The notes below the pieces were generated by a model. That model was not told where the DNA came from, ran no database searches, and saw nothing but the letters and a program-made list of their open reading frames with translations. A stretch of DNA of 64,000 nt from an uncultured Bacilli bacterium. GTDB taxonomy: Bacteria; Bacillota_I; Bacilli_A; RF39; UBA660. The position numbers and the translations under genes were made by a program. The stretch is from NCBI GenBank assembly GCA_947598285.1, contig CANQFE010000001.1, positions 13,705-77,704 on the forward strand, given 5' to 3'. Below, piece after piece: positions 3,843-60,629 of the stretch; the stretch's first letter is position 1; each line of letters starts with the position of its first letter.

Positions 3843-3872
3843 CCCACCGTTTATAAACGGTGGGGGGGGGGG
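3843..3872. repeat. 22-bp perfect palindrome (CCCACCGTTTATAAACGGTGGG) immediately followed by a G11 homopolymer
   Basis: Read directly from the sequence. Intergenic, between the HE remnant and the 3956 gene. Confidence 0.8.
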
Positions 3873-3955: not shown

Positions 3956-4771
3956 ATGCATATATTAACTGAAGATAACCGTAATCAATTTATAGCTAAA
4001 TCTAAGTCCTCCACTAAAGGTAATGAACGATTTAAAAGAAGAACTAAGTCACAAATTCAAAATACTGTTCAAGCCATGAATGCTATTGATATGGATAAGT
4101 TATTTAAAAAAGATATCTTAACAATAGATATTCCTGTTCATGGTGAAACAGATAATTATAAAGTTAAAATATCATACGTAGGATTTTTAGATTTAGTTAA
4201 AAAGGAAGTGCAACGTTCTGGAATATGCACTTTAAGAGAAGTTTCTCGTGCAGCCATTAATGCATTCAATAGTAATGATATTTTTATAAATTGCAGTTGT
4301 CCCGATTATAGATATCGTTATAATTATTGGCGTAGTAAACAAGGACAAAATAGCGCAGAACCAGAAAATAGACCTTCTAATATTACAAATCCTCATGATA
4401 AATTAGGCAGTAGTTGTAAACATGTGTTATTAGTATTAAGTAATAATTCTTGGGTCTTAAGAGTTGCAAGAGTTATTTGGGCATATATCAATTATATGGA
4501 AAAGCATTATAAAAAATTATATGCCAATATTATTTATCCGGCTATATATGATAAAGAATATGAAGAGCCGTATCAATTGTCTTTTGATGACATGGAAGAC
4601 AACGATACACTTGATAGTGAAAAAGATATTATGGATAAAGCCGTTTCTTATAATCAACAAAGAACACGATTTCAAAAAGGAAATACTCAAGGTGTTAGAT
4701 TTGCATCAAGTAATAAATCAAATAATGACCAAATTTCAATACTTTCTGATATGCCTGATAATGAAAATTAA
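3956..4771 (+). CDS. hypothetical protein with SWIM-type zinc finger (CxCx(n)CxH)
   Basis: Motif …INCSCPDYRYRYNYW…SSCKHVLLV… matches the SWIM CxC…CxH pattern. Ribosome-binding site TAGGAGGA upstream. Confidence 0.45.
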   Translation: MHILTEDNRNQFIAKSKSSTKGNERFKRRTKSQIQNTVQAMNAIDMDKLFKKDILTIDIPVHGETDNYKVKISYVGFLDLVKKEVQRSGICTLREVSRAAINAFNSNDIFINCSCPDYRYRYNYWRSKQGQNSAEPENRPSNITNPHDKLGSSCKHVLLVLSNNSWVLRVARVIWAYINYMEKHYKKLYANIIYPAIYDKEYEEPYQLSFDDMEDNDTLDSEKDIMDKAVSYNQQRTRFQKGNTQGVRFASSNKSNNDQISILSDMPDNEN

Positions 4772-5588: not shown

Positions 5589-5796
5589 GGACGGTCGTCC
5601 GTATGGTCCGGTTAGATTAAAAGAAATAATTCGTGAGAGATATGAAATTTCAAAACGTATAAATACCTCTTATAATGATATTGGAGATATAACTCCAACC
5701 GAACGAGCATACTTATTAGAGTTTGCTTTAGATGATATCAAACAACAAAATAAAATAATTGAAGACGCAAATCGTAAAGTAAAATCTAAAAAGTAA
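5560..5796 (+). CDS. small ORF in +1 frame overlapping the 3' end of the 4824-5588 ORF; possible frameshift extension (chaperone gpG/gpGT-like arrangement)
   Basis: No ribosome-binding site of its own. Begins inside the T-rich stretch GAA TTT TTT GGA of the upstream ORF. Ends 14 nt before the tape-measure start. Confidence 0.35.
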   Translation: MNFLDPTLTEDGRPYGPVRLKEIIRERYEISKRINTSYNDIGDITPTERAYLLEFALDDIKQQNKIIEDANRKVKSKK

Positions 5797-5810
5797 AGGA
5801 GGGTGGTTAA

Positions 5811-12271: not shown

Positions 12272-13162
12272 TTGTATAAAGGCATTGTTGTTTCTGCTCA
12301 ACAAAAATCGGTAACTGTACGTATTCCAGAGTTAAATAAAATAGATGGTGCAGTTGGTGCTACTCCGGTAAATGAATTAGTGGCAGCAATTGTTTGTACT
12401 CCTCCAGGATATATTCCGAATTTCAGAATAGGGGATATTGTTTTAGTTGATTTTGAAAATGATGACCTTGAAAGGCCTGTAGTTGTAGGAGCGTTATTTA
12501 CAGAAAAAATATCTTCAAATGCACCTGATATTTATGCAGGAAGTATTACAGTTGGTATTAATAGTATTTTACCAGAAGATACAACAATCGGTAAAGTAAC
12601 TTCTCAAAGTATTGCATATTTACAAGGGTTAGAAGAAAATATACAAATTACAATTAACGAACTTAAACGTCGTTTAAAAAGTAATGAAGAACTTGACATT
12701 GAACAACAACTTAGCGTTGATGAAATAAATTACGCTATCACACAATTGCAAACAACAATTAGTTCAATTAACGAATCTATTAATTATTTATCAAATCTGG
12801 TTAATAATCATGCTGAAATGATTTTAGCAAATCGTTCAGCAATTGTTCAAAATACTGAAAAAATAAATGAAAATCTTAAACAAATAAATGAACATACAAC
12901 ACAAATACGTGATAATACTGAAAAAATACAAGAGAATTCAACTGCAATAACAATGAATTCTACAAAAATATCTCAAAACTCCGATAATATTAAAGAACAT
13001 GCGGGGAAGATTAGCGAGTTAGATACTAATTTAAATACCATAACAGCACGAATTGGTAAGATAGAAGATAAAATTGATCCAATTATTTTAACGAGTAACA
13101 GTTATGGAGCTTCATTACCATCAAGTGCAAAAGAAGGACAGTTATTTTTTCAATTAAAATAA
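12272..13162 (+). CDS. baseplate central spike (gpV/gp5 N-terminal OB-fold) with C-terminal heptad coiled-coil repeats
   Basis: N-terminus …GIVVSAQQKSVTVRIPELNKIDGAV…PPGYIPNFRIGDIVLVDFENDDLERPVVVG resembles the Phage_base_V fold. The C-terminus carries reiterated NTEKI/QENS heptad repeats. TTG start. Confidence 0.6.
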   Translation: MYKGIVVSAQQKSVTVRIPELNKIDGAVGATPVNELVAAIVCTPPGYIPNFRIGDIVLVDFENDDLERPVVVGALFTEKISSNAPDIYAGSITVGINSILPEDTTIGKVTSQSIAYLQGLEENIQITINELKRRLKSNEELDIEQQLSVDEINYAITQLQTTISSINESINYLSNLVNNHAEMILANRSAIVQNTEKINENLKQINEHTTQIRDNTEKIQENSTAITMNSTKISQNSDNIKEHAGKISELDTNLNTITARIGKIEDKIDPIILTSNSYGASLPSSAKEGQLFFQLK

Positions 13163-13175
13163 AAAGGACAGTAAT

Positions 13176-14705
13176 ATGGCCTGGATAAGAAAAGAAAGAC
13201 CAGAATTTGGAAATGTTTTTTATAATACAGAAAATCATGGTGGCATATCTCAATGTATTCTGGGAAATCATTCTGATATATATTATACACATTGGGGGCT
13301 AGACGTACTTAGAAATTGTGTTGGTGCGGCTGCTGGTGCATTTAATGAAACATATTGTCATAATACATATGGTACAAATGATGACGGGTCCCCAAAAGAA
13401 AAACATTTTTATTTTGCATTAAATGCAAATGCTGATGAATTAATTAATCTTACAAAACGTGGCGTATATGATACTGATACAGTAAAATTAAGTGATTATG
13501 TATTACCAAAAACAGCAAGACCACCATTAGGTGGCCTTATTGTGTGGGCGGATACTCATGTCGCATATATATGTGGTGTTAGTGAAGATGGAAACACAAT
13601 AGTGCTACAAGAATCGGGATGGCATTCAAGTAATGATGTAGTACCATCTTTTGATTCAGATAATAACGAATTAAATTATCCAACAGATACAGGTTATGAA
13701 TCTCCTTGGGGATGGAGAAGTAATATCACACGAGAACGAGGAGATGATAATAATTTTGGATATGGTAAGAATGGTTGTCTTGGATTTATTGCAAATCCAG
13801 CTATTTCGAAACCATCTTTACCAGATGCAACCTGGCATACAAAGAAGTTTGGTGGATTTGGAAGCGTTGAAGACGGAACGTTTGATAATAGAGAAACTAG
13901 TGAAGGCTTCCAAAATGTTATTATGATTTATAAAATATTATCAAGTAAAGGATGGAGTCTCAAGTCAGTTTGTGCATTTTTAGGAAATATTGACATGGAA
14001 TCCGAATATAATCCTTGGCAATGGGAAAGTGTTTATAGTGCAGCTGCAGTTCCAACATATGATGAGGCATATGGTTGGTCGGAAGATGAACGAAATAGTA
14101 GACATGGATATGGACTTGTGCAATTTACCCCTTTTACTGATTATGTTGAAAATACGTATAAAGGTATTGTAGCTTCTAGTTATGAAGGATATGGACCAAA
14201 CTTTAAAAACGATGGTGAAAATTTAAATAGTATAAATGATGGTACCGCACAACTTTTATTTATGCATGACACTATAATTTTTGATGGTGTTGGTGGTCAA
14301 TGGTATAACATTCCATCATCTTGTATCGGAGAGGATGGAACTAATTACTGGTTACCTTATAAAGAATTTATTAATGGCGGAGAATATTCGGTAGGACATC
14401 TTACGTCGGTTTTTCTTAGATGTTATTTACGACCAAATCTTAAGTCTAGTAAAGAATTTGAGAGAAGACGACCGGCAGCAGAAACGTGGTATAGTATACT
14501 ACGAAAATATGATTTAACTCCAGGAACACCAATTCCACCAGAACCACAAACATCAGAACCATGTGCGTATATCCAGATAAATGGTGTAATGGTTAAAACT
14601 ATTCCACATATAATGACTTCTTCTGGTTGGAAAAAAGTAATTCCTACTATAAGAAATAATAATAGTTGGAAAGAAATTTATGATAATAAAACGGTTATAA
14701 CATAG
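13176..14705 (+). CDS. tail-associated peptidoglycan hydrolase: N-terminal CHAP/NlpC-P60-like peptidase plus C-terminal glucosaminidase/lysozyme-like domain
   Basis: Candidate catalytic residues are Cys (RNCVGAAAG) and His (THVAYICGV…QESGW). The C-terminal region carries GNIDMESEYNPWQ…GYGLVQFT. Lies in the baseplate cluster between the spike and gpW. Confidence 0.6.
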   Translation: MAWIRKERPEFGNVFYNTENHGGISQCILGNHSDIYYTHWGLDVLRNCVGAAAGAFNETYCHNTYGTNDDGSPKEKHFYFALNANADELINLTKRGVYDTDTVKLSDYVLPKTARPPLGGLIVWADTHVAYICGVSEDGNTIVLQESGWHSSNDVVPSFDSDNNELNYPTDTGYESPWGWRSNITRERGDDNNFGYGKNGCLGFIANPAISKPSLPDATWHTKKFGGFGSVEDGTFDNRETSEGFQNVIMIYKILSSKGWSLKSVCAFLGNIDMESEYNPWQWESVYSAAAVPTYDEAYGWSEDERNSRHGYGLVQFTPFTDYVENTYKGIVASSYEGYGPNFKNDGENLNSINDGTAQLLFMHDTIIFDGVGGQWYNIPSSCIGEDGTNYWLPYKEFINGGEYSVGHLTSVFLRCYLRPNLKSSKEFERRRPAAETWYSILRKYDLTPGTPIPPEPQTSEPCAYIQINGVMVKTIPHIMTSSGWKKVIPTIRNNNSWKEIYDNKTVIT

Positions 14706-19854: not shown

Positions 19855-20580
19855 ATGGCTATTTTTAGATTACAAGAGCATTCACCAGATGTATATCCAA
19901 GAAAATCACGAGATTATCAATTATTTTCAGTATTGTTTGATTGTTTAAATGGTGGAATTAAACACGATATAAATTCAATTAGAGACATACTAGATACAAA
20001 TCAAATAAATGAAAATTTAATACCGTATTTGCAAACAAAACTTGGATTTTTTACAAAAATTAAAATTCCAACGGATAAGTTAAGAATAATTTTAAAAGCT
20101 TTTCCAACTATTGTAAAAAATAAAGGGTCCAAAAAAGGAATAGAACAAGCAATTGAAGTATTTTTAAAAGTAGAAAAAATTTCTGCTAAGATGGGAGTTA
20201 CCATTATAAATAAAGCAGAAAATGCAAAAGATTCGTATACTATTCTAATTAGTACATCTAAAAAAATTGATAATTATGATATTCTTAAAGAAATTCTACG
20301 TTATGTTTTACCAGCTGGATATATTTTGAAATTTGTGTATGCTCCAGAAGCTGGAGCTATTAACGATAGAGTTGTATACATGGACGCAATTGAAATTGCA
20401 GCTGCGGATCCTTTCTTAAGTAGAGGTGTTAGAAATACGGATGAAAATACAAACATACCTAATCTATATAACACAGTTGGCTTAACAACAGTATCTTCAA
20501 ATGATCTAAAAAAGCATGAACCAAATAAATATAAGTTAGTTGACAAGAAGAGTTGGGAGAGGGAAGATTTATGGGATTAA
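19855..20580 (+). CDS. baseplate protein gpI-like (P2 tail protein I family)
   Basis: N-terminus …LQEHSPDVYPRKSRDYQLFSVLFD… resembles the tail protein I (DUF2313) signature. Follows gpJ, as in P2. Confidence 0.55.
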   Translation: MAIFRLQEHSPDVYPRKSRDYQLFSVLFDCLNGGIKHDINSIRDILDTNQINENLIPYLQTKLGFFTKIKIPTDKLRIILKAFPTIVKNKGSKKGIEQAIEVFLKVEKISAKMGVTIINKAENAKDSYTILISTSKKIDNYDILKEILRYVLPAGYILKFVYAPEAGAINDRVVYMDAIEIAAADPFLSRGVRNTDENTNIPNLYNTVGLTTVSSNDLKKHEPNKYKLVDKKSWEREDLWD

Positions 20581-21128
20581 ATATTAAAGGTCGTGGTACT
20601 AATTATATAGGATACCAAGGCTATGTTGTTATTTCAACCATTGATAAAAGTGGGCATAAAGTTAAACGATTTAATGCATATAATTCTGGAACTCCAAAAC
20701 TTGGTGAAATTATAAGTAGATCATTACTTCGTGGATCACAATATACGGTTCAAGATACAGAGAAACCATATTCGCTTGGTTTTCTAACTAAGGCGGAAAA
20801 AGGTGTTGGACAGCGTATTACTAATCAAACAGTACCATTCTCAGGTATTGTTTTTGGTGATGCAGTTGAATTGCCGCCTGAATTACAAGCAGATAGGGTA
20901 ATTGGTCAATTAAAGTTAACGGCAATCTTAACACGAAGTTCCGTTAATTTAGGACTAAGTACTAGTAATATGGAATTAACAATTAATGATGCACGTGGAA
21001 ACGTATTAGCCTATATTGATGATGTTGATATTTCTGAATTAGGCGAATCAATTTTAGCGAATGTGTATAGTGCATTAAAAGTTCAAGATGTTCTTATTGA
21101 ATGGTACATGCTTATTCTAAATAAATGA
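20571..21128 (+). CDS. tail fiber/baseplate-associated protein
   Basis: ATG at 20571 with ribosome-binding site GAGGGAAG. The ORF-track start at 20553 is a TTG in the same frame. Directly downstream of gpJ and gpI. Confidence 0.4.
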   Translation: MGLNIKGRGTNYIGYQGYVVISTIDKSGHKVKRFNAYNSGTPKLGEIISRSLLRGSQYTVQDTEKPYSLGFLTKAEKGVGQRITNQTVPFSGIVFGDAVELPPELQADRVIGQLKLTAILTRSSVNLGLSTSNMELTINDARGNVLAYIDDVDISELGESILANVYSALKVQDVLIEWYMLILNK

Positions 21129-33108: not shown

Positions 33109-33837
33109 ATGAAGAAAATCTTGTTATATAGTGGCGGAATGGATAGTTGGCTAATTGATAAGATATGGAAACCAGATGAAAAAGTCTATGTTAATATGCA
33201 CACTCGTTATTCTGAACAAGAAATGAAGAAATTAAAATTGCGTAATGAGAATATTACAATTCTTGATTTCCCTCTTGGGCAATTTGAAAGAGAGGATAAA
33301 ATTATTCCATTAAGAAATCTATATCTAACAATGCTTATTTGTAATTATACCGGCAATGAAGATGTAGATATTTGTCTTGGAGCAACTGCAGGAGATAGAG
33401 TTTTAGATAAATCATTTAATTTTGTAGAAAAGGTAAATGATCTACTAAATTACTTATATAGCCCACAGTGGTGGATTCCTGCTGGAAAGAAAATTAGAGT
33501 AAATATTGATTTTAAAGATAAAACAAAATCAGACCTTCTTGACATGTACTTAAAGGCTGGTGGAACATTAGAAGAAGCATTTAATAAATCATTTAGTTGC
33601 TATGAACCAGATGAAGAAGGACATGAATGTTGGTCATGCAAACCTTGTTTTAGAAAGTTTGTAACATTTGCTGATAAGGGATTTACGTTTTCAGAGGATG
33701 TTCTTAAGAAAGTAATTCCATATATTTCAAAAGAAATTATTCCTCAGATTAAGAGTGGAACATATGGACGTGGAATATCGGAAGAATCACTTATTTTATC
33801 TGTCTATGAGAAATATAAAGATTTTGACACTGTGTAA
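33109..33837 (+). CDS. queC: 7-cyano-7-deazaguanine (preQ0) synthase QueC
   Basis: PP-loop LLYSGGMDS and C-terminal zinc motif CYEPDEEGHECWSCKPC. 242 aa, with no fused glutaminase domain. Confidence 0.8.
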   Translation: MKKILLYSGGMDSWLIDKIWKPDEKVYVNMHTRYSEQEMKKLKLRNENITILDFPLGQFEREDKIIPLRNLYLTMLICNYTGNEDVDICLGATAGDRVLDKSFNFVEKVNDLLNYLYSPQWWIPAGKKIRVNIDFKDKTKSDLLDMYLKAGGTLEEAFNKSFSCYEPDEEGHECWSCKPCFRKFVTFADKGFTFSEDVLKKVIPYISKEIIPQIKSGTYGRGISEESLILSVYEKYKDFDTV

Positions 33838-33925: not shown

Positions 33926-34861
33926 ATGAAATTTAATTTTTATTTTACTGGTGTAGATACCAAATCTGAAATGTTCAGATACTTAGTCGAAAATTATGGA
34001 TATTTACTGTATTCGCAATTAAATGATCGACGAAATATTATGAACACAATTGAGTACATGAAAGAGCATCCAGATAATAGAATTAAACTTTTTATTGACT
34101 CTGGTGCTTATAGTGCATGGTCTTTAGGTAAGAAGATTGATGTAGAAGAATACATTAATTTCTTAAATAAATATTCAGAATATTTTGAAATGTTTGCGTG
34201 TGTAGATAAACTACCAGGTACTCCTAAAACTGTTTCTAAACTAAGTCATGAAGAAGTAGAAGAATCGGCAAAATTGTCGTGGGAAAATTATCTGTATATG
34301 CGTTCTAAAGTAAAGGAACCCGATAAACTTCTATATACATTTCATTCAAACGAGTCTTTTGATCATCTTATTACCGCTCTACAATATGAAGATGAGCATG
34401 GAAAATTAAAAAGAATGGCAACTGGTGGTACAGCAAGTATTGAAAGATCTGATCGTAAGAATTTCTTTGATAAAGTATATAAGACTTTGAAAGAAGTTCC
34501 AAATGAAATTAAAGATATACACGCTTTTGGAGTTTCAGACTTTAAGTTAATGGAAAATTATACTGCTACCTCATCTGATTCTACTACATGGGTTCGTAGT
34601 GCTTCTTTTGGTCAGATTATGATTAACAATAAAGTTTATACGGTTTCCGATAGAAAAGAAGATGTCGGAGAAAATGAAGATCAAAAAAGTCTTTCTCATT
34701 ATGAAGCTTTAAAAACAGCGGTTGAAAAAAGAGGATTTACAGTTCAAGAATTAAAAGAAGATGTAAATAAACGTAAGCTTTTTAATATTATAGATACAAT
34801 TCAGACAGTGAAATCTTTACAATATAAACCGCAAAAAACAACAAAAGTGGATTTATTTTAA
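33926..34861 (+). CDS. dpdA: DpdA, tRNA-guanine transglycosylase-like DNA transglycosylase (inserts 7-deazaguanine base into DNA)
   Basis: TGT-family catalytic Asp motif KLFIDSGAYSAW and a second acidic motif HAFGVSDF. ~310 aa, as for phage DpdA. Flanked by queC and folE. Confidence 0.7.
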   Translation: MKFNFYFTGVDTKSEMFRYLVENYGYLLYSQLNDRRNIMNTIEYMKEHPDNRIKLFIDSGAYSAWSLGKKIDVEEYINFLNKYSEYFEMFACVDKLPGTPKTVSKLSHEEVEESAKLSWENYLYMRSKVKEPDKLLYTFHSNESFDHLITALQYEDEHGKLKRMATGGTASIERSDRKNFFDKVYKTLKEVPNEIKDIHAFGVSDFKLMENYTATSSDSTTWVRSASFGQIMINNKVYTVSDRKEDVGENEDQKSLSHYEALKTAVEKRGFTVQELKEDVNKRKLFNIIDTIQTVKSLQYKPQKTTKVDLF

Positions 34862-34879: not shown

Positions 34880-35686
34880 ATGATGGTTGATTTTGTAAAA
34901 ACACAATATTTTGCTAAGTTTAAAGATCATACTCCGGAGCAGTTTGAAGTTGATTTTAACGCTTACTTAAATATTCCTCATTTCAAGGCAAACGAAAATA
35001 TTCATGAAGTATTATCGGCTAATGATAAAGAAGAAAAATATTGTCGTAGAGACATTGAAAACGAATTTATCGACGAAGATAATAATATTAAACCGGAAGT
35101 TCATTGGATTATGCGAAGTGCAACACAATATTATCTTATGAAAGCATTTAATGCAATGAAGATTGATTTAACTGATCCGAATGTAGATATTAATGCTCTA
35201 GGTAAAGGAACCCCTGGAAGAATTGCAAAAATGTGGTGTGGTAACGATCCAGATGATACAACGGAATTGGGCTCTGGAAGATGGAATAAAGAACCTGTTC
35301 TTTCTATTTTTCCAAATGATGGACAGCAAGGTATTATTTGTAAAGAAGTAGATCTAATATCCTGTTGTAGTCATCATTTTCTTCCTTTTAGTACTTTGGA
35401 TAGAGGTAGAGCAATTATTGCATATAAACCTGGAACGCATTTAATTGGGATTAGTAAATTACAACGTTTTGTTAATTGGGCTGCCAAGAGGTTTTGGTTA
35501 CAAGAAGATTTAACAAATTATCTTGGTAAGACTATTAAGAGAATTTCAGGTACAGAAGATGTCTTTATTAAAATCGAAAACGCAGTTCATGGATGTGAAC
35601 ATTATAGAGGTGCTAATTCAAAAGATGGTTCTTTAACCACAGAATATAGAAGTGGCATATTTAATGATAGTAATGTAACGTTCTAA
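34880..35686 (+). CDS. folE: GTP cyclohydrolase I (FolE) with N-terminal extension
   Basis: Collinear with FolE: RIAKMW (cf. RVAKMY); CCSHHFLPF (cf. CEHHFV); IAYKPGTHLIGISKLQRFVNWAAKR (cf. VAYIP…VIGLSKINRIV); AVHGCEHYRG (cf. AVHYCVKARG). Confidence 0.75.
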   Translation: MMVDFVKTQYFAKFKDHTPEQFEVDFNAYLNIPHFKANENIHEVLSANDKEEKYCRRDIENEFIDEDNNIKPEVHWIMRSATQYYLMKAFNAMKIDLTDPNVDINALGKGTPGRIAKMWCGNDPDDTTELGSGRWNKEPVLSIFPNDGQQGIICKEVDLISCCSHHFLPFSTLDRGRAIIAYKPGTHLIGISKLQRFVNWAAKRFWLQEDLTNYLGKTIKRISGTEDVFIKIENAVHGCEHYRGANSKDGSLTTEYRSGIFNDSNVTF

Positions 35687-55024: not shown

Positions 55025-55576
55025 ATGTCTACACTAAATATTCCAATACAGTTAAATGCTGGACAATCTGCTCCAACGACACTGTATCCAAGAGAATTAT
55101 TTGTACAATATAATAGTAATAATATCCCCGTTAACTTATGGATAGGTCCAAATGCTACTAAAAATACAAACGCCGATCAGAAAAAAGGAACCCCACAAAA
55201 AATAGTGGTATCAAGTTCTAATTCTGCTAATTCATTTAAAAATGGAGATACTTTCTTATCAAATAATTCGTATTCATCAGATTCATCTGGAGGTGCTTCT
55301 GGGAACATAACAAGGCTTGGTAACTTCAATGTTGTCAATCAAGGAACTTCAACTAATCGTAAATATAAGTGGACTACAATTGTTTCAGGGTCGGTAGATT
55401 CTACTAGTATTCAGGAAGCAACAACAAGTACAAATATAGATAATTATAATACCTTTCAATATATCAACATAAATCAATTAGGCCGTTTAGTTGCAAAACG
55501 TAATGGTGCGGTTTTTGGTAGTGCCTTTCCAAGTAATCCAAGCGATGGACAAGTTTTCTTTAAAATTGTTACATAA
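55025..55576 (+). CDS. virion/fiber-associated protein
   Basis: 183 aa, S/N/T-rich. Confidence 0.4.
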   Translation: MSTLNIPIQLNAGQSAPTTLYPRELFVQYNSNNIPVNLWIGPNATKNTNADQKKGTPQKIVVSSSNSANSFKNGDTFLSNNSYSSDSSGGASGNITRLGNFNVVNQGTSTNRKYKWTTIVSGSVDSTSIQEATTSTNIDNYNTFQYININQLGRLVAKRNGAVFGSAFPSNPSDGQVFFKIVT

Positions 55577-55592
55577 GTAAGGGTGTAGACAT

Positions 55593-57362
55593 ATGGGACT
55601 AACTACGCAAGCATACCACTGGATTGATGGAAATGATAATAATTTTTTAAGCAGTAAATATCCAATTCGATGGATAAATAATACTGGAAGTACACGTAAA
55701 ATTATTAGTATTTCTGCAAAAATGGCTTCAGTTGATACTCGTAGTTCAACGGTAACAAAAAACAACGTAGGCGTATGTATTGAAAATGCAACCGGGGCGT
55801 ATGCCTATGGAACTGGTAATCCATATAAGGTACAGTTAGGAGCTAGAATATTTTTAGGGGATGTGTTTACCGGAACTGAATACATGTCAGAAAATGAACC
55901 AGAAATAAGCGAACGTGTTGGGGTACACCCTTGGTCGCAGGATGGAAAATCTGGTGTTACTGCTAATTATACGAATATCTCTTCTATAACAACCTGGACA
56001 TTTAAGACATTTGAAGTACGAAGTGGTTATACAGTTAAATTTTATTTTAAAGTTACTAAAAAGTCTGATAGTCTTGTTATAACTCTTGATTTTACTAACA
56101 TTGATGATGCGGCTATTATGCCACCGGTGTGTACATTAACTTATGATGCTACTGGTGGAACTGGTGCACCAGTAGATCAATCTGCAGCAAAAGGTTCATT
56201 CGTTACTATATCATCACAAATTCCAAGTAAAACTAACTATAATTTTAAAAATTGGAGTTTAAATTCCACCGGAACATCATCGTCATATACTCCAGGTCAA
56301 TCTATACAATTAGACGATAATAAAACGTTATATGCTATTTGGGAAGATGCAAAATTAGATTTAACACTTGAACAATATAGAGTTGAAAAAACTACTCGTA
56401 CAACGGATCCATGGGATCTTTGTGCAATTATAAAAGCATCAAGTACCGCAACTGACTGGTCTTATAGATACAATGATGAAACTAACTATCGACTATATTC
56501 ATCAGCGAATACGTCGTCTATAACATATCGAATTCCACAAACTGCTGGTAAGATATATCGAATTTATTTTAGAGCAAGACGTGTAAATTCAACCGTTACT
56601 GGTGAAACTAGTGATTATGCTGAATATGACTTAGTATTACCAAAAATTAACCGCGCATCGGTTAATGTAACAGGTGCAAAGCAAGGCGATTTAACATTTA
56701 TAGCAGATAAGAAGGTTCAATGGGAATTTACAGGAACACTTAATGGTGCTACGATTCGAACTGTAAATGCTATAGATGCAGACGTTCCTGCAAACACGGA
56801 AGTTACGAGATCTGTTAATTTATGGTCAAATTCAAGTCTTGATTATACATTAAGAGTTAAACGATCCGATAATATATTTCTTACGGATTCTAAACAAATT
56901 CCAGTTAGTACTGTACCACTGGAATTAAATTTAAGTATAGACTCAGGTTATCCATTAGCAACTGTAGTTAAGTTAACATGTAAAGCCCCATCTAATGTAC
57001 AAGCGGATACTTGGAATTACGATTTGTGGAAAATCACTAAAGAAAATAATATTACTACTACAGTTCGTTTGGAGACAAATACGGCTATATCTGGTGGAAC
57101 AAATGCAGAGGTAAAATTAACACGTTCTAGCTTAATTCCTGGTATTTTATATAAAGCTAAATTTTATGCTACGGACAATCGTAATATTATAGCATCGTCA
57201 AACGAAGTTACATTTATTCCTACAGGTGGAATATATGTATATGACGAAACAACACAAAAAAATGTTTTATGTGGTGTATATATCTATAATAGTACAAAAG
57301 GTAAATGGGAAATTTACAATCCATATGTATATAATAACAATGAATGGAAAATATCAAATTAG
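55593..57362 (+). CDS. tail fiber / receptor-binding-like beta-rich protein
   Basis: 589 aa, T/S/N/Y-rich with predicted beta-strand repeats. Lies in a cluster with the poly-G fiber genes. Confidence 0.45.
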   Translation: MGLTTQAYHWIDGNDNNFLSSKYPIRWINNTGSTRKIISISAKMASVDTRSSTVTKNNVGVCIENATGAYAYGTGNPYKVQLGARIFLGDVFTGTEYMSENEPEISERVGVHPWSQDGKSGVTANYTNISSITTWTFKTFEVRSGYTVKFYFKVTKKSDSLVITLDFTNIDDAAIMPPVCTLTYDATGGTGAPVDQSAAKGSFVTISSQIPSKTNYNFKNWSLNSTGTSSSYTPGQSIQLDDNKTLYAIWEDAKLDLTLEQYRVEKTTRTTDPWDLCAIIKASSTATDWSYRYNDETNYRLYSSANTSSITYRIPQTAGKIYRIYFRARRVNSTVTGETSDYAEYDLVLPKINRASVNVTGAKQGDLTFIADKKVQWEFTGTLNGATIRTVNAIDADVPANTEVTRSVNLWSNSSLDYTLRVKRSDNIFLTDSKQIPVSTVPLELNLSIDSGYPLATVVKLTCKAPSNVQADTWNYDLWKITKENNITTTVRLETNTAISGGTNAEVKLTRSSLIPGILYKAKFYATDNRNIIASSNEVTFIPTGGIYVYDETTQKNVLCGVYIYNSTKGKWEIYNPYVYNNNEWKISN

Positions 57363-57374
57363 GAGTTGTGTAAT

Positions 57375-57917
57375 ATGAATAATGTGTATTTATCAGGGAT
57401 AATTAAAAATATAGAACCATCTCATTGTATTAATGGGATTCAATATAACAAAGCAAATATAATTATTCCAAGAGCAAAAGGAAAAGAAGATATAATTGTA
57501 TTAAAGTATAAAGAATTTACAAATAAGAATAATTATAAAGACGGAGATACAATATGTCTACTTGGAAATGTTCGTACGTATTCCATTCATCAACCAGACG
57601 GAACAGATAAAATATCAGTTTACGTATTTACTTATTTTGATAAACCAGAAGAAACGTTAGAAGATAATACTAATAAGTGCGAAATATCAGGACGAATATG
57701 TAAAATTAGTAATATAAGATATACAAAAGATAATAATCGAAATATTCATTTTATACTCGCAAATAATATAGAAAACGGAAATGGAAGACGATATTCAAGT
57801 TATATTCCTTGTATTGCATGGGGTAAGATAGCAGATTCATTATCTAAATTTTCAGTTAATACGCAACTTGAATTATTTGGAGAATTACACTCAAATAACT
57901 GTAAAAAAAAAATCTAA
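57375..57917 (+). CDS. tandem OB-fold (SSB-like) protein
   Basis: Two halves each resemble the bacterial SSB OB-fold: NNVYLSGIIKNIEP…LLGNVRTY and IHFILANN…IPCIAWGKIADSL…LELFGEL. ATG at 57375 after AGGAG. Confidence 0.4.
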   Translation: MNNVYLSGIIKNIEPSHCINGIQYNKANIIIPRAKGKEDIIVLKYKEFTNKNNYKDGDTICLLGNVRTYSIHQPDGTDKISVYVFTYFDKPEETLEDNTNKCEISGRICKISNIRYTKDNNRNIHFILANNIENGNGRRYSSYIPCIAWGKIADSLSKFSVNTQLELFGELHSNNCKKKI

Positions 57918-57975: not shown

Positions 57976-58790
57976 ATGGCAAATTATATTTCACAAATTA
58001 AACTACCGAATGGTACAACGTATAATGTTCAAGATACTGAGAAGTTACCCCTAGGGGGGGGACAATAACTGGTTCGTTAACCATAAATGATGCAGTAATA
58101 GCAAACAACATTTATGGTAGTTTAAACAAAATTAATCTTACAGCAGATACTTATGATCAAAATACTTGGTATCCAGTGGTTGGAAATAAACTTGCGTACT
58201 CTAGATTTGGGTATACACATCTTTGTGTTGTACACGAATTAGATAACGATGTGCTGCCTTCATGGAGTACTCATGAACAAGGCTATTATTGCTTAACAGA
58301 AGTCTTAACTCAAGCGTCAGGTTGGGGAATGTCTTCAGGAACAACTATAATTCTTATAAACGATTGTTGTTGGATAAAAGATAATCTTAATCCTGTAGCA
58401 TATCGTCAAATGATGCATAGTTCATATCCCGTTTTTTATCTTAGAGGCGGTGGAATATACAATATTTATTCTAACGAGAATACAACTTGGACAGTTCATA
58501 CTTCGTTGTATGAACATTCACAAGATACAGTGCAGCCCGAAACTTCTTGTCCGTCAAATGTTAATCCTCCAGGAACAATTAAAACAAATATTAATGGAAT
58601 TGCTACTAAAGTTAGTTCAGCGTTAACTGTTGGTGGTAAAACTTATGATGGTTCTAAAGCAGTTACATTAACAGCAGCAGATTTAGGCGCATTAACAACA
58701 TCAACTGCAAGTACAACATACGCTACTAAAACAGAGATGAATGCCAAAAATGATAAAGCAAAAGTTGAAGGAGATATTCTAATATTATAA
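57976..58790 (+). CDS. receptor-binding/fiber-like gene interrupted by a G8 homopolymer tract (58054-58061); out of frame as sequenced, in frame with G9
   Basis: Upstream frame gives MANYISQIKLPNGTTYNVQDTEKLPLGGGQ*. The downstream frame is open from 58041 to 58790 (ORF-track ORF 58176-58790). Adding one G fuses the two frames. Confidence 0.55.
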
Positions 58791-58815
58791 TAATTTTAAT
58801 TGGAGGAAATTAGTA

Positions 58816-59404
58816 ATGGCTGAATTTATTAATCAAATTAAACTTCCCAATAATATTACATATGACATACAAGATCGTAATGCTCTTCCTCTATCTTCCG
58901 TAGTTCAAATTATGGGGGGGGGGGCAAACGACCCTCATGTCCCAAAAAGCAATTACGGATGAATTGAATAAAGTAGATACACAAGGAATAAATTTAGTCT
59001 GTAATAGTTTAGGAACACATGTAGCTAATACAGGCGTTTCAAGCGTTTTATTTCAATATACTTTACTCGAAGAAATTGAATTGAATGTTGACTATACGTT
59101 TACTTTATATGGAACCGGTGCTTTTAGAATTCATATAGGATTACCTAATGATCGAGGGTGGAATGATCCATACAGTGGAAGATTTGTAATCCCAGAAAGT
59201 AAAATTTTCAGTTTTACTGGTAGATTAACGTCATGGAATATGGGAGATGAACAAACCAAAAAAGACAATCTTGCACTATATTCTCAAAGCATTAATGCTA
59301 CGATTAATAAAATAAAAGTAGAAAGAGGTAACGTAATACATCCTATATGGAGTCCTTCTCCATTAGATATTAGAGTGTCAGACGATATATTAATTTTATT
59401 ATGA
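58816..59404 (+). CDS. paralogous receptor-binding/fiber-like gene interrupted by a G11 homopolymer tract (58914-58924); in frame with G10
   Basis: Upstream frame gives MAEFINQIKLPNNITYDIQDRNALPLSSVVQIMGGGANDPHVPKSNYG*. The downstream frame is open from 58904 to 59404. The N-terminus is paralogous to the 57976 gene. Confidence 0.55.
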
Positions 59405-60191: not shown

Positions 60192-60518
60192 ATGAAAGCT
60201 AAATTTGAAGACGACTTTGAATATGTTACTCGTAAGCCAAAAAAGAAATTTATAAGAAAGTATCAAGAAGAATTAGATACTCAGAAAGTTGAGGAACTTG
60301 CAAAAAAGTTAATACAACAATCTGTTGATTATAAAAATATATTTGGATATGAGCTTGAAAAGAACAATATTAGATGTATTTCTAAATGGAATAAACAATC
60401 AGAAGTATTTGTGTGTTATAAAAAACAAGATAATACGATTATAGAAACTAGACAAAAAACCTATCGTGAGTTCAATTGTGATAAGGCCGTTGAATACATA
60501 GATGAAATTACAAAATAA
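60192..60518 (+). CDS. hypothetical protein
   Basis: 108 aa. Followed by a T11 tract. Confidence 0.4.
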   Translation: MKAKFEDDFEYVTRKPKKKFIRKYQEELDTQKVEELAKKLIQQSVDYKNIFGYELEKNNIRCISKWNKQSEVFVCYKKQDNTIIETRQKTYREFNCDKAVEYIDEITK

Positions 60519-60629
60519 TCAACTTTAATTTGTTGATTATTTTTTTTTTTACTTTTGTGCTGAATTTAGTTGAATTTCTTCTAATTTGATATTATAATAT
60601 AATCATAAAAAGGAAAGGAAGAAATACAA

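Follow-up and report, generated by a model that had tools for sequence, protein, structure and literature searches.

Phase-variable receptor-binding proteins under the control of polyG tracts were reportedly found by Sorensen et al. in 2021 (Cell Rep 35:109214) in phages of Campylobacter jejuni (Fletchervirus). Passages of PMC10579305 describe hypermutable polyG tracts that make the expression of receptor-binding proteins phase-variable in Campylobacter phages, and passages of PMC10877375, PMC8696038 and PMC12823448 cite the phenomenon. Contingency loci also occur in T-even and other phages, where short homopolymers within open reading frames (ORFs) undergo reversible frameshifts by polymerase slippage and generate heterogeneity that can act as bet-hedging (Gomez, Barrick & Waters, bioRxiv 10.1101/2025.10.21.683753). 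Across the 41 BASEL coliphages of that study, contingency repeats are under-represented in tail fibre (infection) genes, at ~0.77x the expected number, which makes their placement in appendage genes notable in the locus analysed here. This locus comprises two adjacent genes, here called A and B, in a stretch of 64,000 nucleotides (the window; positions 13,705 to 77,704 of contig CANQFE010000001.1, GenBank assembly GCA_947598285.1). We propose that genes A and B are modular tail-appendage (adhesin) genes with a poly-G contingency switch, a reading that we hold to be reasonably probable; within it, DNA-level phase variation is likely for gene B and only plausible for gene A. PolyG contingency loci of phages are already known, and what is new is their presence in a lineage unrelated to the Campylobacter phages.

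From its ATG at 58816, gene B reads MAEFINQIKLPNNITYDIQDRNALPLSSVVQIM before entering a run of eleven Gs (tract B), which is translated in this frame as GGG GGG GGG and followed by 12 further codons and a TGA at 58960-58962 (Table 1). Tract lengths of G10, G13 or G7 fuse the two frames into products of 195, 196 or 194 amino acids (aa), and G11 and G12 give 48 and 50 aa. For the corresponding run of gene A (tract A), G8 and G7 give 30 and 37 aa. All elements of the gene B anatomy proposed in an earlier note on this DNA (G11 at 58914-58924, an early stop, and fusion to a 166-codon frame by G10, G13 or G7) were confirmed in the sequence, as was its statement that both genes are OFF in the window, each being out of frame as sequenced. 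With the G runs of the two genes at codons 27-36, out-of-frame alleles yield the anchor peptide alone. An internal start at ATG 58937 could provide an anchor-less 155-aa product in OFF alleles; it has no canonical Shine-Dalgarno sequence, save the G run itself 12 nt upstream. Both downstream frames are open over lengths that random sequence would hardly reach (P ~2e-10 for 241 codons of gene A and ~2e-7 for the 166 codons of gene B). The first 26 residues of gene A (MANYISQIKLPNGTTYNVQD) and gene B (MAEFINQIKLPNNITYDIQD), both of a MADISKIKLPNGTTYNIKD-like type, are 61.5% identical (16/26; tblastn E 4.5e-06 in the window), and the remainder of the two proteins is unrelated, so that the paralogy seen by the earlier note holds and is limited to a short N-terminal module.

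Runs of this kind are rare in the window, which has 30.0% G+C. Only four G runs of at least six were found (G6, G8, G11 and G11) and no C run of at least six, and an extra 16 kb flanking the window holds no such run. Per window, 0.04-0.06 runs of at least eight Gs would be expected and 2-4e-4 runs of at least eleven, of which two were observed. The codon GGG accounts for 8.4% of glycine codons, and among the Gly-Gly pairs of other genes GGGGGG was used in 1 of 45. The third long tract is an intergenic G11 at 3862-3872, which forms a direct continuation of the 3' arm in the perfect hairpin CCCACCG-tttataa-CGGTGGG (3843-3872) and lies ~84 nt 5' of the ORF at 3956-4771; this tract could be a promoter or attenuator element. 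A C run (CCC or CCCC) that is able to pair lies at most 25 nt from each long G tract (3843, 58048 and 58932). CCC is rare, with 90 occurrences in 64 kb; the chance of this at a random site is ~0.066 and that of three in three is P ~3e-4. Slipped or hairpin intermediates might be stabilised by these nearby C runs, or codon usage may have placed the runs there by coincidence.

Using an exact-sequence index, we located the same phage in the European Nucleotide Archive (ENA) assemblies ERZ27249252 and ERZ27249462 and in the Logan assemblies ERR10663698-701. Compared with the window, these assemblies show 0 mismatches over 15,187 nt and a single gap, which is tract B; shorter loci are fully identical. 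Tract B is G11 in the window, G13 in ERZ27249252 (L001) and G12 in ERZ27249462 (L002), and the G13 allele was called as an in-frame 196-aa protein (P0002), that is, as the ON state. The two full contigs that cross tract B (the window and L001) differ in its length, and contigs of ERZ27249462, ERR10663701 and ERR10663699 end or start within it. Tract A is G8, and out of frame, in 5/5 assemblies. Control homopolymers are constant in the same assemblies: the intergenic G11 in 4/4 crossing contigs, a T11 (60540-60550) in 4/4, an A10 (57903-57912) in 5/5 and an A8 (59589) in 6/6, so that generic homopolymer error explains the pattern poorly. In the assemblies, length polymorphism, ON allele included, appears to be confined to tract B. 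The earlier note had given each gene its own hypermutable tract; the assemblies support this for tract B, with 11, 12 and 13 Gs between otherwise identical sequences, and not for tract A. The uniform tract length that the note had named as refuting was not seen at tract B. As to the controls themselves, the A10 forms the 3' end of the SSB-like (single-stranded DNA-binding) gene at 57366-57917, and the T11 follows a hairpin, AATCAAC..GTTGATT, 3' of the ORF at 60192-60518 and is terminator-like. A possible single-nucleotide difference from L005 was seen near window position 5757, close to a contig end.

Several observations weigh against the proposed switch. Tract variation was read from assembled contigs, at a k-mer coverage of ~4.5x (taken from the contig names), and errors are frequent in long G runs; G12 was counted in a contig that stops 4 nt past the tract, which makes this count less reliable. 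The assemblies appear to derive from one small set of related samples, and contigs also break at ordinary sequence, e.g., near window 5803-5809. The equally long intergenic G11 is stable, which means that length alone guarantees no visible variation, and tract A has one and the same out-of-frame length throughout, as would be expected of a fixed loss or of recoding no less than of a slow switch. Genes A and B moreover sit amid genes for replication and nucleotide metabolism (SSB, deformylase, DUF932), outside the baseplate module at 4.8-21.7 kb, and the structure model of gene B described below is of moderate confidence, with a mean predicted local distance difference test score (pLDDT) of 63.5. 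The low coverage, the breaks elsewhere and the position of the G12 call at a contig end would all be at home in a technical explanation, by which the length differences and contig breaks of tract B are Illumina library or assembly errors and the true length is fixed, possibly in frame; one Logan contig (L008) even begins exactly at the intergenic G11. We regard such an artefact as unlikely, given that the intergenic run of equal length, from the same samples and assemblers, was read as G11 each time, that the T11, A10, A8 and G8 runs are invariant, and that tract B is the sole difference in 15,187 nt, on which the crossing contigs of the window and L001 disagree. Even a single true length would leave a coding run of G11-13 in a 30%-GC genome unexplained by chance.

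Our lower estimate for phase variation of gene A follows from its shorter tract, which is fixed out of frame in all assemblies while the gene is intact. The same combination, G8 in 5/5 with an intact and conserved 242-codon downstream frame, would also agree with expression-level recoding, in which programmed ribosomal frameshifting or RNA-polymerase slippage leads to constitutive or leaky expression, mainly of gene A. Tract A reads G_GGG_GGA and fits the X_XXY_YYZ heptamer, a -1 slip would give the ON frame with the junction LPLGGG-TITGSL, and an AU-rich 10-bp hairpin lies downstream. The fold after tract A is, however, not significant (minimum free energy -12.1 kcal/mol, z -1.66, 13/200 shuffles as good), nor is that after tract B, and the main hairpin starts ~18 nt past the heptamer, outside the usual 5-9 nt. 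The homologues examined (P0035 and those of L072, L073 and L071) are single ORFs with GGT, GGC or GGG junction codons and no slippery run. For gene B, a +1 or -2 shift would be required at G11 but a -1 shift at G12, so that no single rule fits the alleles, and an in-frame DNA allele exists. Recoding therefore appears to us about as improbable as a sequencing artefact, and we retain the DNA-level switch as the preferred reading, with gene B as its stronger case.

Homology and predicted fold point to both genes encoding putative host-recognition-type proteins. Gene A, when repaired, has 32 homologues (E down to 8e-37) that share a core domain, DQNTWYPVVG...PSWSTH...LRGGG, within proteins showing fibre features such as ALPLTGGTI motifs and tail-fibre PHROG N-termini; every invariant residue of this core is present in gene A. 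One of these homologues (P0005) has tail-fibre PHROG N-termini and is assigned Pfam PF18454 in a precomputed table, a family that we take to be the Mtd N-terminal domain. Gene A itself matches phrog_10903 at 3.7e-12, and its C-terminal part shows a weak match to the tail fibre family phrog_6722 (7.8e-4). Sequence and profile searches of PDB with gene A gave no match, and no relatives were found in IMG/VR.

Repaired gene B belongs to no family in Pfam or PHROGs and a word-indexed protein search returned only the query, yet an exhaustive phmmer search recovered 49 relatives. Approximately residues 40-190 (...IKLExGxVxxPxWTPAPED) correspond to a domain, sometimes repeated, of long tail proteins that also carry Prophage_tail, BppU_N, collagen or gp58 domains and tail PHROGs. 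The predicted structure of the gene B product is a beta-sandwich jelly roll similar to carbohydrate-binding modules (CBMs) and BppA and to domains of phage receptor-binding proteins, with tail and receptor-binding proteins among its fold matches. In PDB, sequence and profile searches with gene B returned nothing better than E>0.4, and the solved structures have no sequence match to it. A single-sequence AlphaFold model was discarded (pLDDT 34). The earlier note had expected different C-terminal domains with a receptor-binding role; they are indeed unrelated to each other, and each is related to structural, host-recognition-type proteins, contrary to the lack of structural relatives that the note had named as refuting, with the structure prediction for gene B giving a CBM/BppA-like jelly roll. 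Despite their unrelated distal domains, the extreme C-termini are alike (gene A ...GDILIL*, 58773-58787; gene B ...DDILILL*, 59384-59401), and a gene B homologue (P0055) ends in ...DNHILVIGTNN; the ending shared by genes A and B may represent a common C-terminal strand or assembly signal.

The conservation of the downstream frames also bears on a third explanation, in which genes A and B are decaying pseudogenes, accessory fibre genes that were frameshifted in accidental G runs and are heading for loss. That both are out of frame in the window and gene A in every assembly, that gene A has no recognisable Shine-Dalgarno sequence, and that both lie outside the main baseplate module would agree with decay. 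Yet the downstream frames are fully open, and both retain all residues that are invariant in their families, including that of gene B; the lesions fall exclusively in G runs, an intact gene B allele circulates, and two independent runs at the same junction of two paralogues would be unexpected from neutral decay. We consider this explanation very improbable, the least so favoured of the three, and continue with contingency switching.

The conserved N-terminus, which the earlier note took to be probably virion-anchoring, is widespread on appendage proteins in structural modules of other phages. It follows the motif M-A-[DN]-[IL]-S-[KQ]-I-K-L-P-N-G-T-T-Y-[ND]-I-K-D, located at the extreme N-terminus and succeeded by variable distal parts. 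An N-terminal profile retrieved 44 proteins starting with MADIS[KQ]IKLPNGTTY[ND]IKD or near variants, all of 29-79 aa, of which 24 were read individually; the candidate step of this search seems to favour query-sized proteins, as a 346-aa protein (P0035) was not returned. This fibre-like P0035 has an N-terminus nearly identical to that of gene A, and the gene that follows it (L010) starts with a looser form of the motif. The pattern IKLPNGTTY[ND]IKD was found in 4 loci of IMG/VR, and the motif heads proteins of 116 and 983 aa in the IMG/VR loci L072 and L073. In L071 (4696-6880), two tandem motif genes (281 and 429 aa) with unrelated C-termini stand directly 3' of phi29-like upper and lower collar genes, and in L015 (8001-8228) a 75-aa motif protein lies within a fibre module. 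A degenerate pattern, QIKLPN..TY..QD, had zero matches in IMG/VR and JGI metagenomes. The sole PDB match of the N-terminal profile, to polyubiquitin, was rejected as spurious, a sum of weak repeats. Among the small motif proteins (P0084-P0126), many end in ...LPIYDGTV or ...NGDGVSY. The motif family appears to be undescribed, with no Pfam or PHROG match. Taken across these sequences, the comparison supports a putative N-terminal module that stays constant and carries exchangeable distal parts, frequently arranged in tandem, and we infer that the module would be a virion-docking element. Elsewhere in the window, the ORF at 20553-21128 contains GSQYTVQDTEKPYSLG, which resembles GTTYNVQDTEKLPLGG of gene A (E 1.1, not significant) and might, at the canonical position of a fibre gene, be either a relic or a motif related to docking; the gene just before it (19855-20580) is baseplate gpI-like by position only and has no family match.

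In the long members of the family the motif is followed by [AL]-[LMQ]-[PQ]-[LV]-[TS]-G-G-x-x-T-G, and it is exactly this Gly-Gly junction that both G runs encode, in gene B after a 7-residue insertion. The relatives checked use GGT GGC, GGC GGG or GGT GGG as junction codons, in loci free of any G or C run of at least 7. It follows that the homopolymers are derived in this phage; at one structural position, and against codon bias, they either arose twice or were copied.

On this basis we suggest the following mechanism. Each protein would consist of a short N-terminal docking motif, a Gly-Gly(-Gly) junction and its own distal domain, a conserved fibre-tip-type domain in gene A and a carbohydrate-binding-module-like jelly roll in gene B. 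The junction glycines, recoded as an unbroken G run, would form the contingency locus, at which slipped-strand mispairing during replication would add or remove a G. One length in three would then give the full adhesin and the other two a 30-50 aa peptide with the anchor only, and the likely outcome would be phage subpopulations with and without the gene B adhesin, which would amount to bet-hedging with respect to the glycans of the host surface. For gene B such switching appears to take place naturally, with G11 and G12 as OFF and G13 as ON alleles. Slippage as the cause, attachment to the virion by way of the N-terminus, the binding of glycans and consequences for host range, including the combinatorial diversification suggested by the earlier note, are inferred. 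A further idea, to which we give little credence, is that the out-of-frame peptides of 30-50 aa occupy or cap the shared docking site of the virion, which would create a three-state switch in which the tract lengths of both neighbouring loci select the one of several appendages, if any, that a common site displays. It stems from the size of the OFF peptides, which fall within or near the 29-79 aa range of the natural stand-alone motif proteins.

Table 1 Coordinates of the two G-tract genes and of the baseplate module in the window
Feature	Position	Strand	Description
Gene A 5' ORF as sequenced	57976..58068	+	30 aa + stop; motif MANYISQIKLPNGTTYNVQDTEKLPL, then GGG
Tract A, G8	58054..58061	+	G9/G6 restore 271/270 aa
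Gene A downstream frame	58062..58790	+	242 codons + stop; TITGSL, DQNTWYPVVG..PSWSTH..LRGGG domain, fibre-like C-terminal segment ending DILIL
Shine-Dalgarno GGAGG	58802..58806	+	9 nt 5' of gene B start codon
Gene B 5' ORF as sequenced	58816..58962	+	48 aa + TGA; motif MAEFINQIKLPNNITYDIQDRNALPL, linker SSVVQIM, then GGG
Gene B downstream open frame	58904..59404	+	166 codons + stop; helix, then CBM-like beta-sandwich (predicted); motifs IKVERGNVIHPIWSPSPLD, terminal DILILL
Tract B, G11 in the window	58914..58924	+	G run in gene B
Myovirus-like baseplate module	~4.8-21.7 kb		T4_baseplate-domain, tape-measure-like, lysin, weak Phage_base_V, 1,538-aa protein, short downstream ORFs

Genes A and B belong to an uncultured 137-kb, 30%-GC phage with a gut Firmicute as its probable host. 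Almost all ORFs of the window lie on the + strand. The phage encodes a replication set comprising a family A polymerase, a DnaB-like helicase, a primase, a clamp, a clamp loader, and UvsX-like and SbcCD-like proteins. Its polymerase is most similar to that of a fragment of a human faecal phage (55%), followed by those of Clostridium phages (41%) and of Streptococcus Dp-1 (38%); this proximity to phages of Clostridium and Streptococcus makes a Firmicute the probable host, rather than Campylobacter. The structural proteins of the phage have few PHROG matches. Searches of INPHARED phage DNA gave no match for the locus (distant mode) or for 24 kb of the window (near mode), and exact look-ups of P0001, of the 48-aa OFF product and of the first window gene returned no record. 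The pattern IKLPNGTTY[ND]IKD has zero matches in GTDB genomes, so that it offers no prophage lead to the host.

Around genes A and B lie genes for a peptide deformylase, a 183-aa ORF product, a 589-aa Listeria-Bacteroides-repeat protein, an SSB-like protein and a DUF932 protein. The 183-aa ORF and the gene of the 589-aa protein (Flg_new, 2.5e-11) occupy 55025-57362, 5' of the SSB-like gene, and the C-terminus of the former (...PSDGQVFFKIVT) resembles that of a spike-like protein at 12272-13162 (...AKEGQLFFQLK). Together with genes A and B, these neighbours may form an accessory adhesin cluster apart from the baseplate module. A synteny search via the DUF932 neighbour yielded 52 loci, with motif genes in 0 of them. 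Scans of 54-60.3 kb for promoters (31 promoter-like sites versus a mean of 38 in shuffled sequence) and terminators (1 terminator-like site versus a mean of 2.2) were uninformative, and the surroundings of the locus showed neither an invertase nor inverted repeats nor a reverse transcriptase.

Homing or HNH endonuclease-like genes are present at 343-1356 and 2058-2969 (phrog_3339 and phrog_559), and the counterpart of the endonuclease-like gene in L005 has a faint NUMOD3 match. The window also carries a 7-deazaguanine-type DNA modification set, with a QueC-like gene (33109-33837), a DpdA/queuine tRNA-ribosyltransferase-like gene (33926-34861) and a GTP cyclohydrolase I gene (34880-35686), from which it appears that the phage probably modifies guanines in its own DNA. 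Campylobacter phages likewise combine G modification with polyG tracts. These genes and the C runs near the G tracts might tune slippage or attenuation at the tracts.

The features of local interest are the tandem paralogues with a shared anchor motif, the recoded Gly-Gly junction and the natural ON and OFF alleles in public assemblies. If the proposed switch is real, poly-G phase variation of adhesins is not confined to Campylobacter phages but extends to an unrelated gut phage lineage that probably infects Firmicutes, which would point to convergence of contingency loci among viruses. In that case, fibre genes of viromes that appear split or frameshifted, and contigs that break at a G run, should not be automatically corrected or discarded as errors, and host-range predictions should count such genes as conditionally expressed. 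Should the docking-cap idea also prove true, phages of Gram-positive gut bacteria would have evolved poly-G adhesin switching independently, and this overlooked mechanism may lie quite generally behind the broken or frameshifted fibre genes of metagenomic phages. The simple natural design, with a constant anchor, a gate made of a G run and a distal domain open to exchange, lends itself to testing or reuse in phage engineering.

Compared with the known systems, the locus comes nearest to the polyG tracts of Campylobacter phages, a precedent that the earlier note did not mention. Both have a long G homopolymer within a gene for a host-recognition protein (here a putative one) in a ~30%-GC genome of the 135-kb class, with length changes that would switch between full-length and truncated products, and in both the tracts disturb genome assembly; guanine-modification genes occur here, and DNA modification of Campylobacter phages is noted in PMC8696038. 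In contrast, this phage has no detectable DNA or structural-protein relationship to known phages, and its locus consists of two tandem paralogues with one N-terminal motif in which the tract recodes a Gly-Gly junction. The contingency loci of T-even and other phages are mostly 6-9 nt long, whereas the tracts described here have 8-13 Gs, are compositionally extreme and lie specifically in appendage genes. The C. jejuni capsule transferase genes cj1421, cj1422 and cj1426 share with genes A and B a 5'-proximal polyG, short OFF peptides and a three-state length cycle; here, the locus is viral, is replicated with a phage-encoded set of family A polymerase, clamp and helicase, and encodes a putative virion adhesin rather than a surface-modifying enzyme. 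Unlike the accessory carbohydrate-binding baseplate proteins of Gram-positive phages (Tuc2009 BppA, the phi812 baseplate CBM protein and the receptor-binding proteins of Bacillus phages), the gene B product would be small, at 195 aa, would stand alone and would begin with another N-terminal motif; it is a putative sugar binder. In outcome, the arrangement would resemble the invertible G/C segments of Mu and P1 and the diversity-generating retroelement of Bordetella phage BPP-1 (Mtd), all of which place alternative or variable distal fibre domains on a constant anchor, yet the proposed change here is a frameshift between ON and OFF, and neither domain exchange nor mutagenesis.

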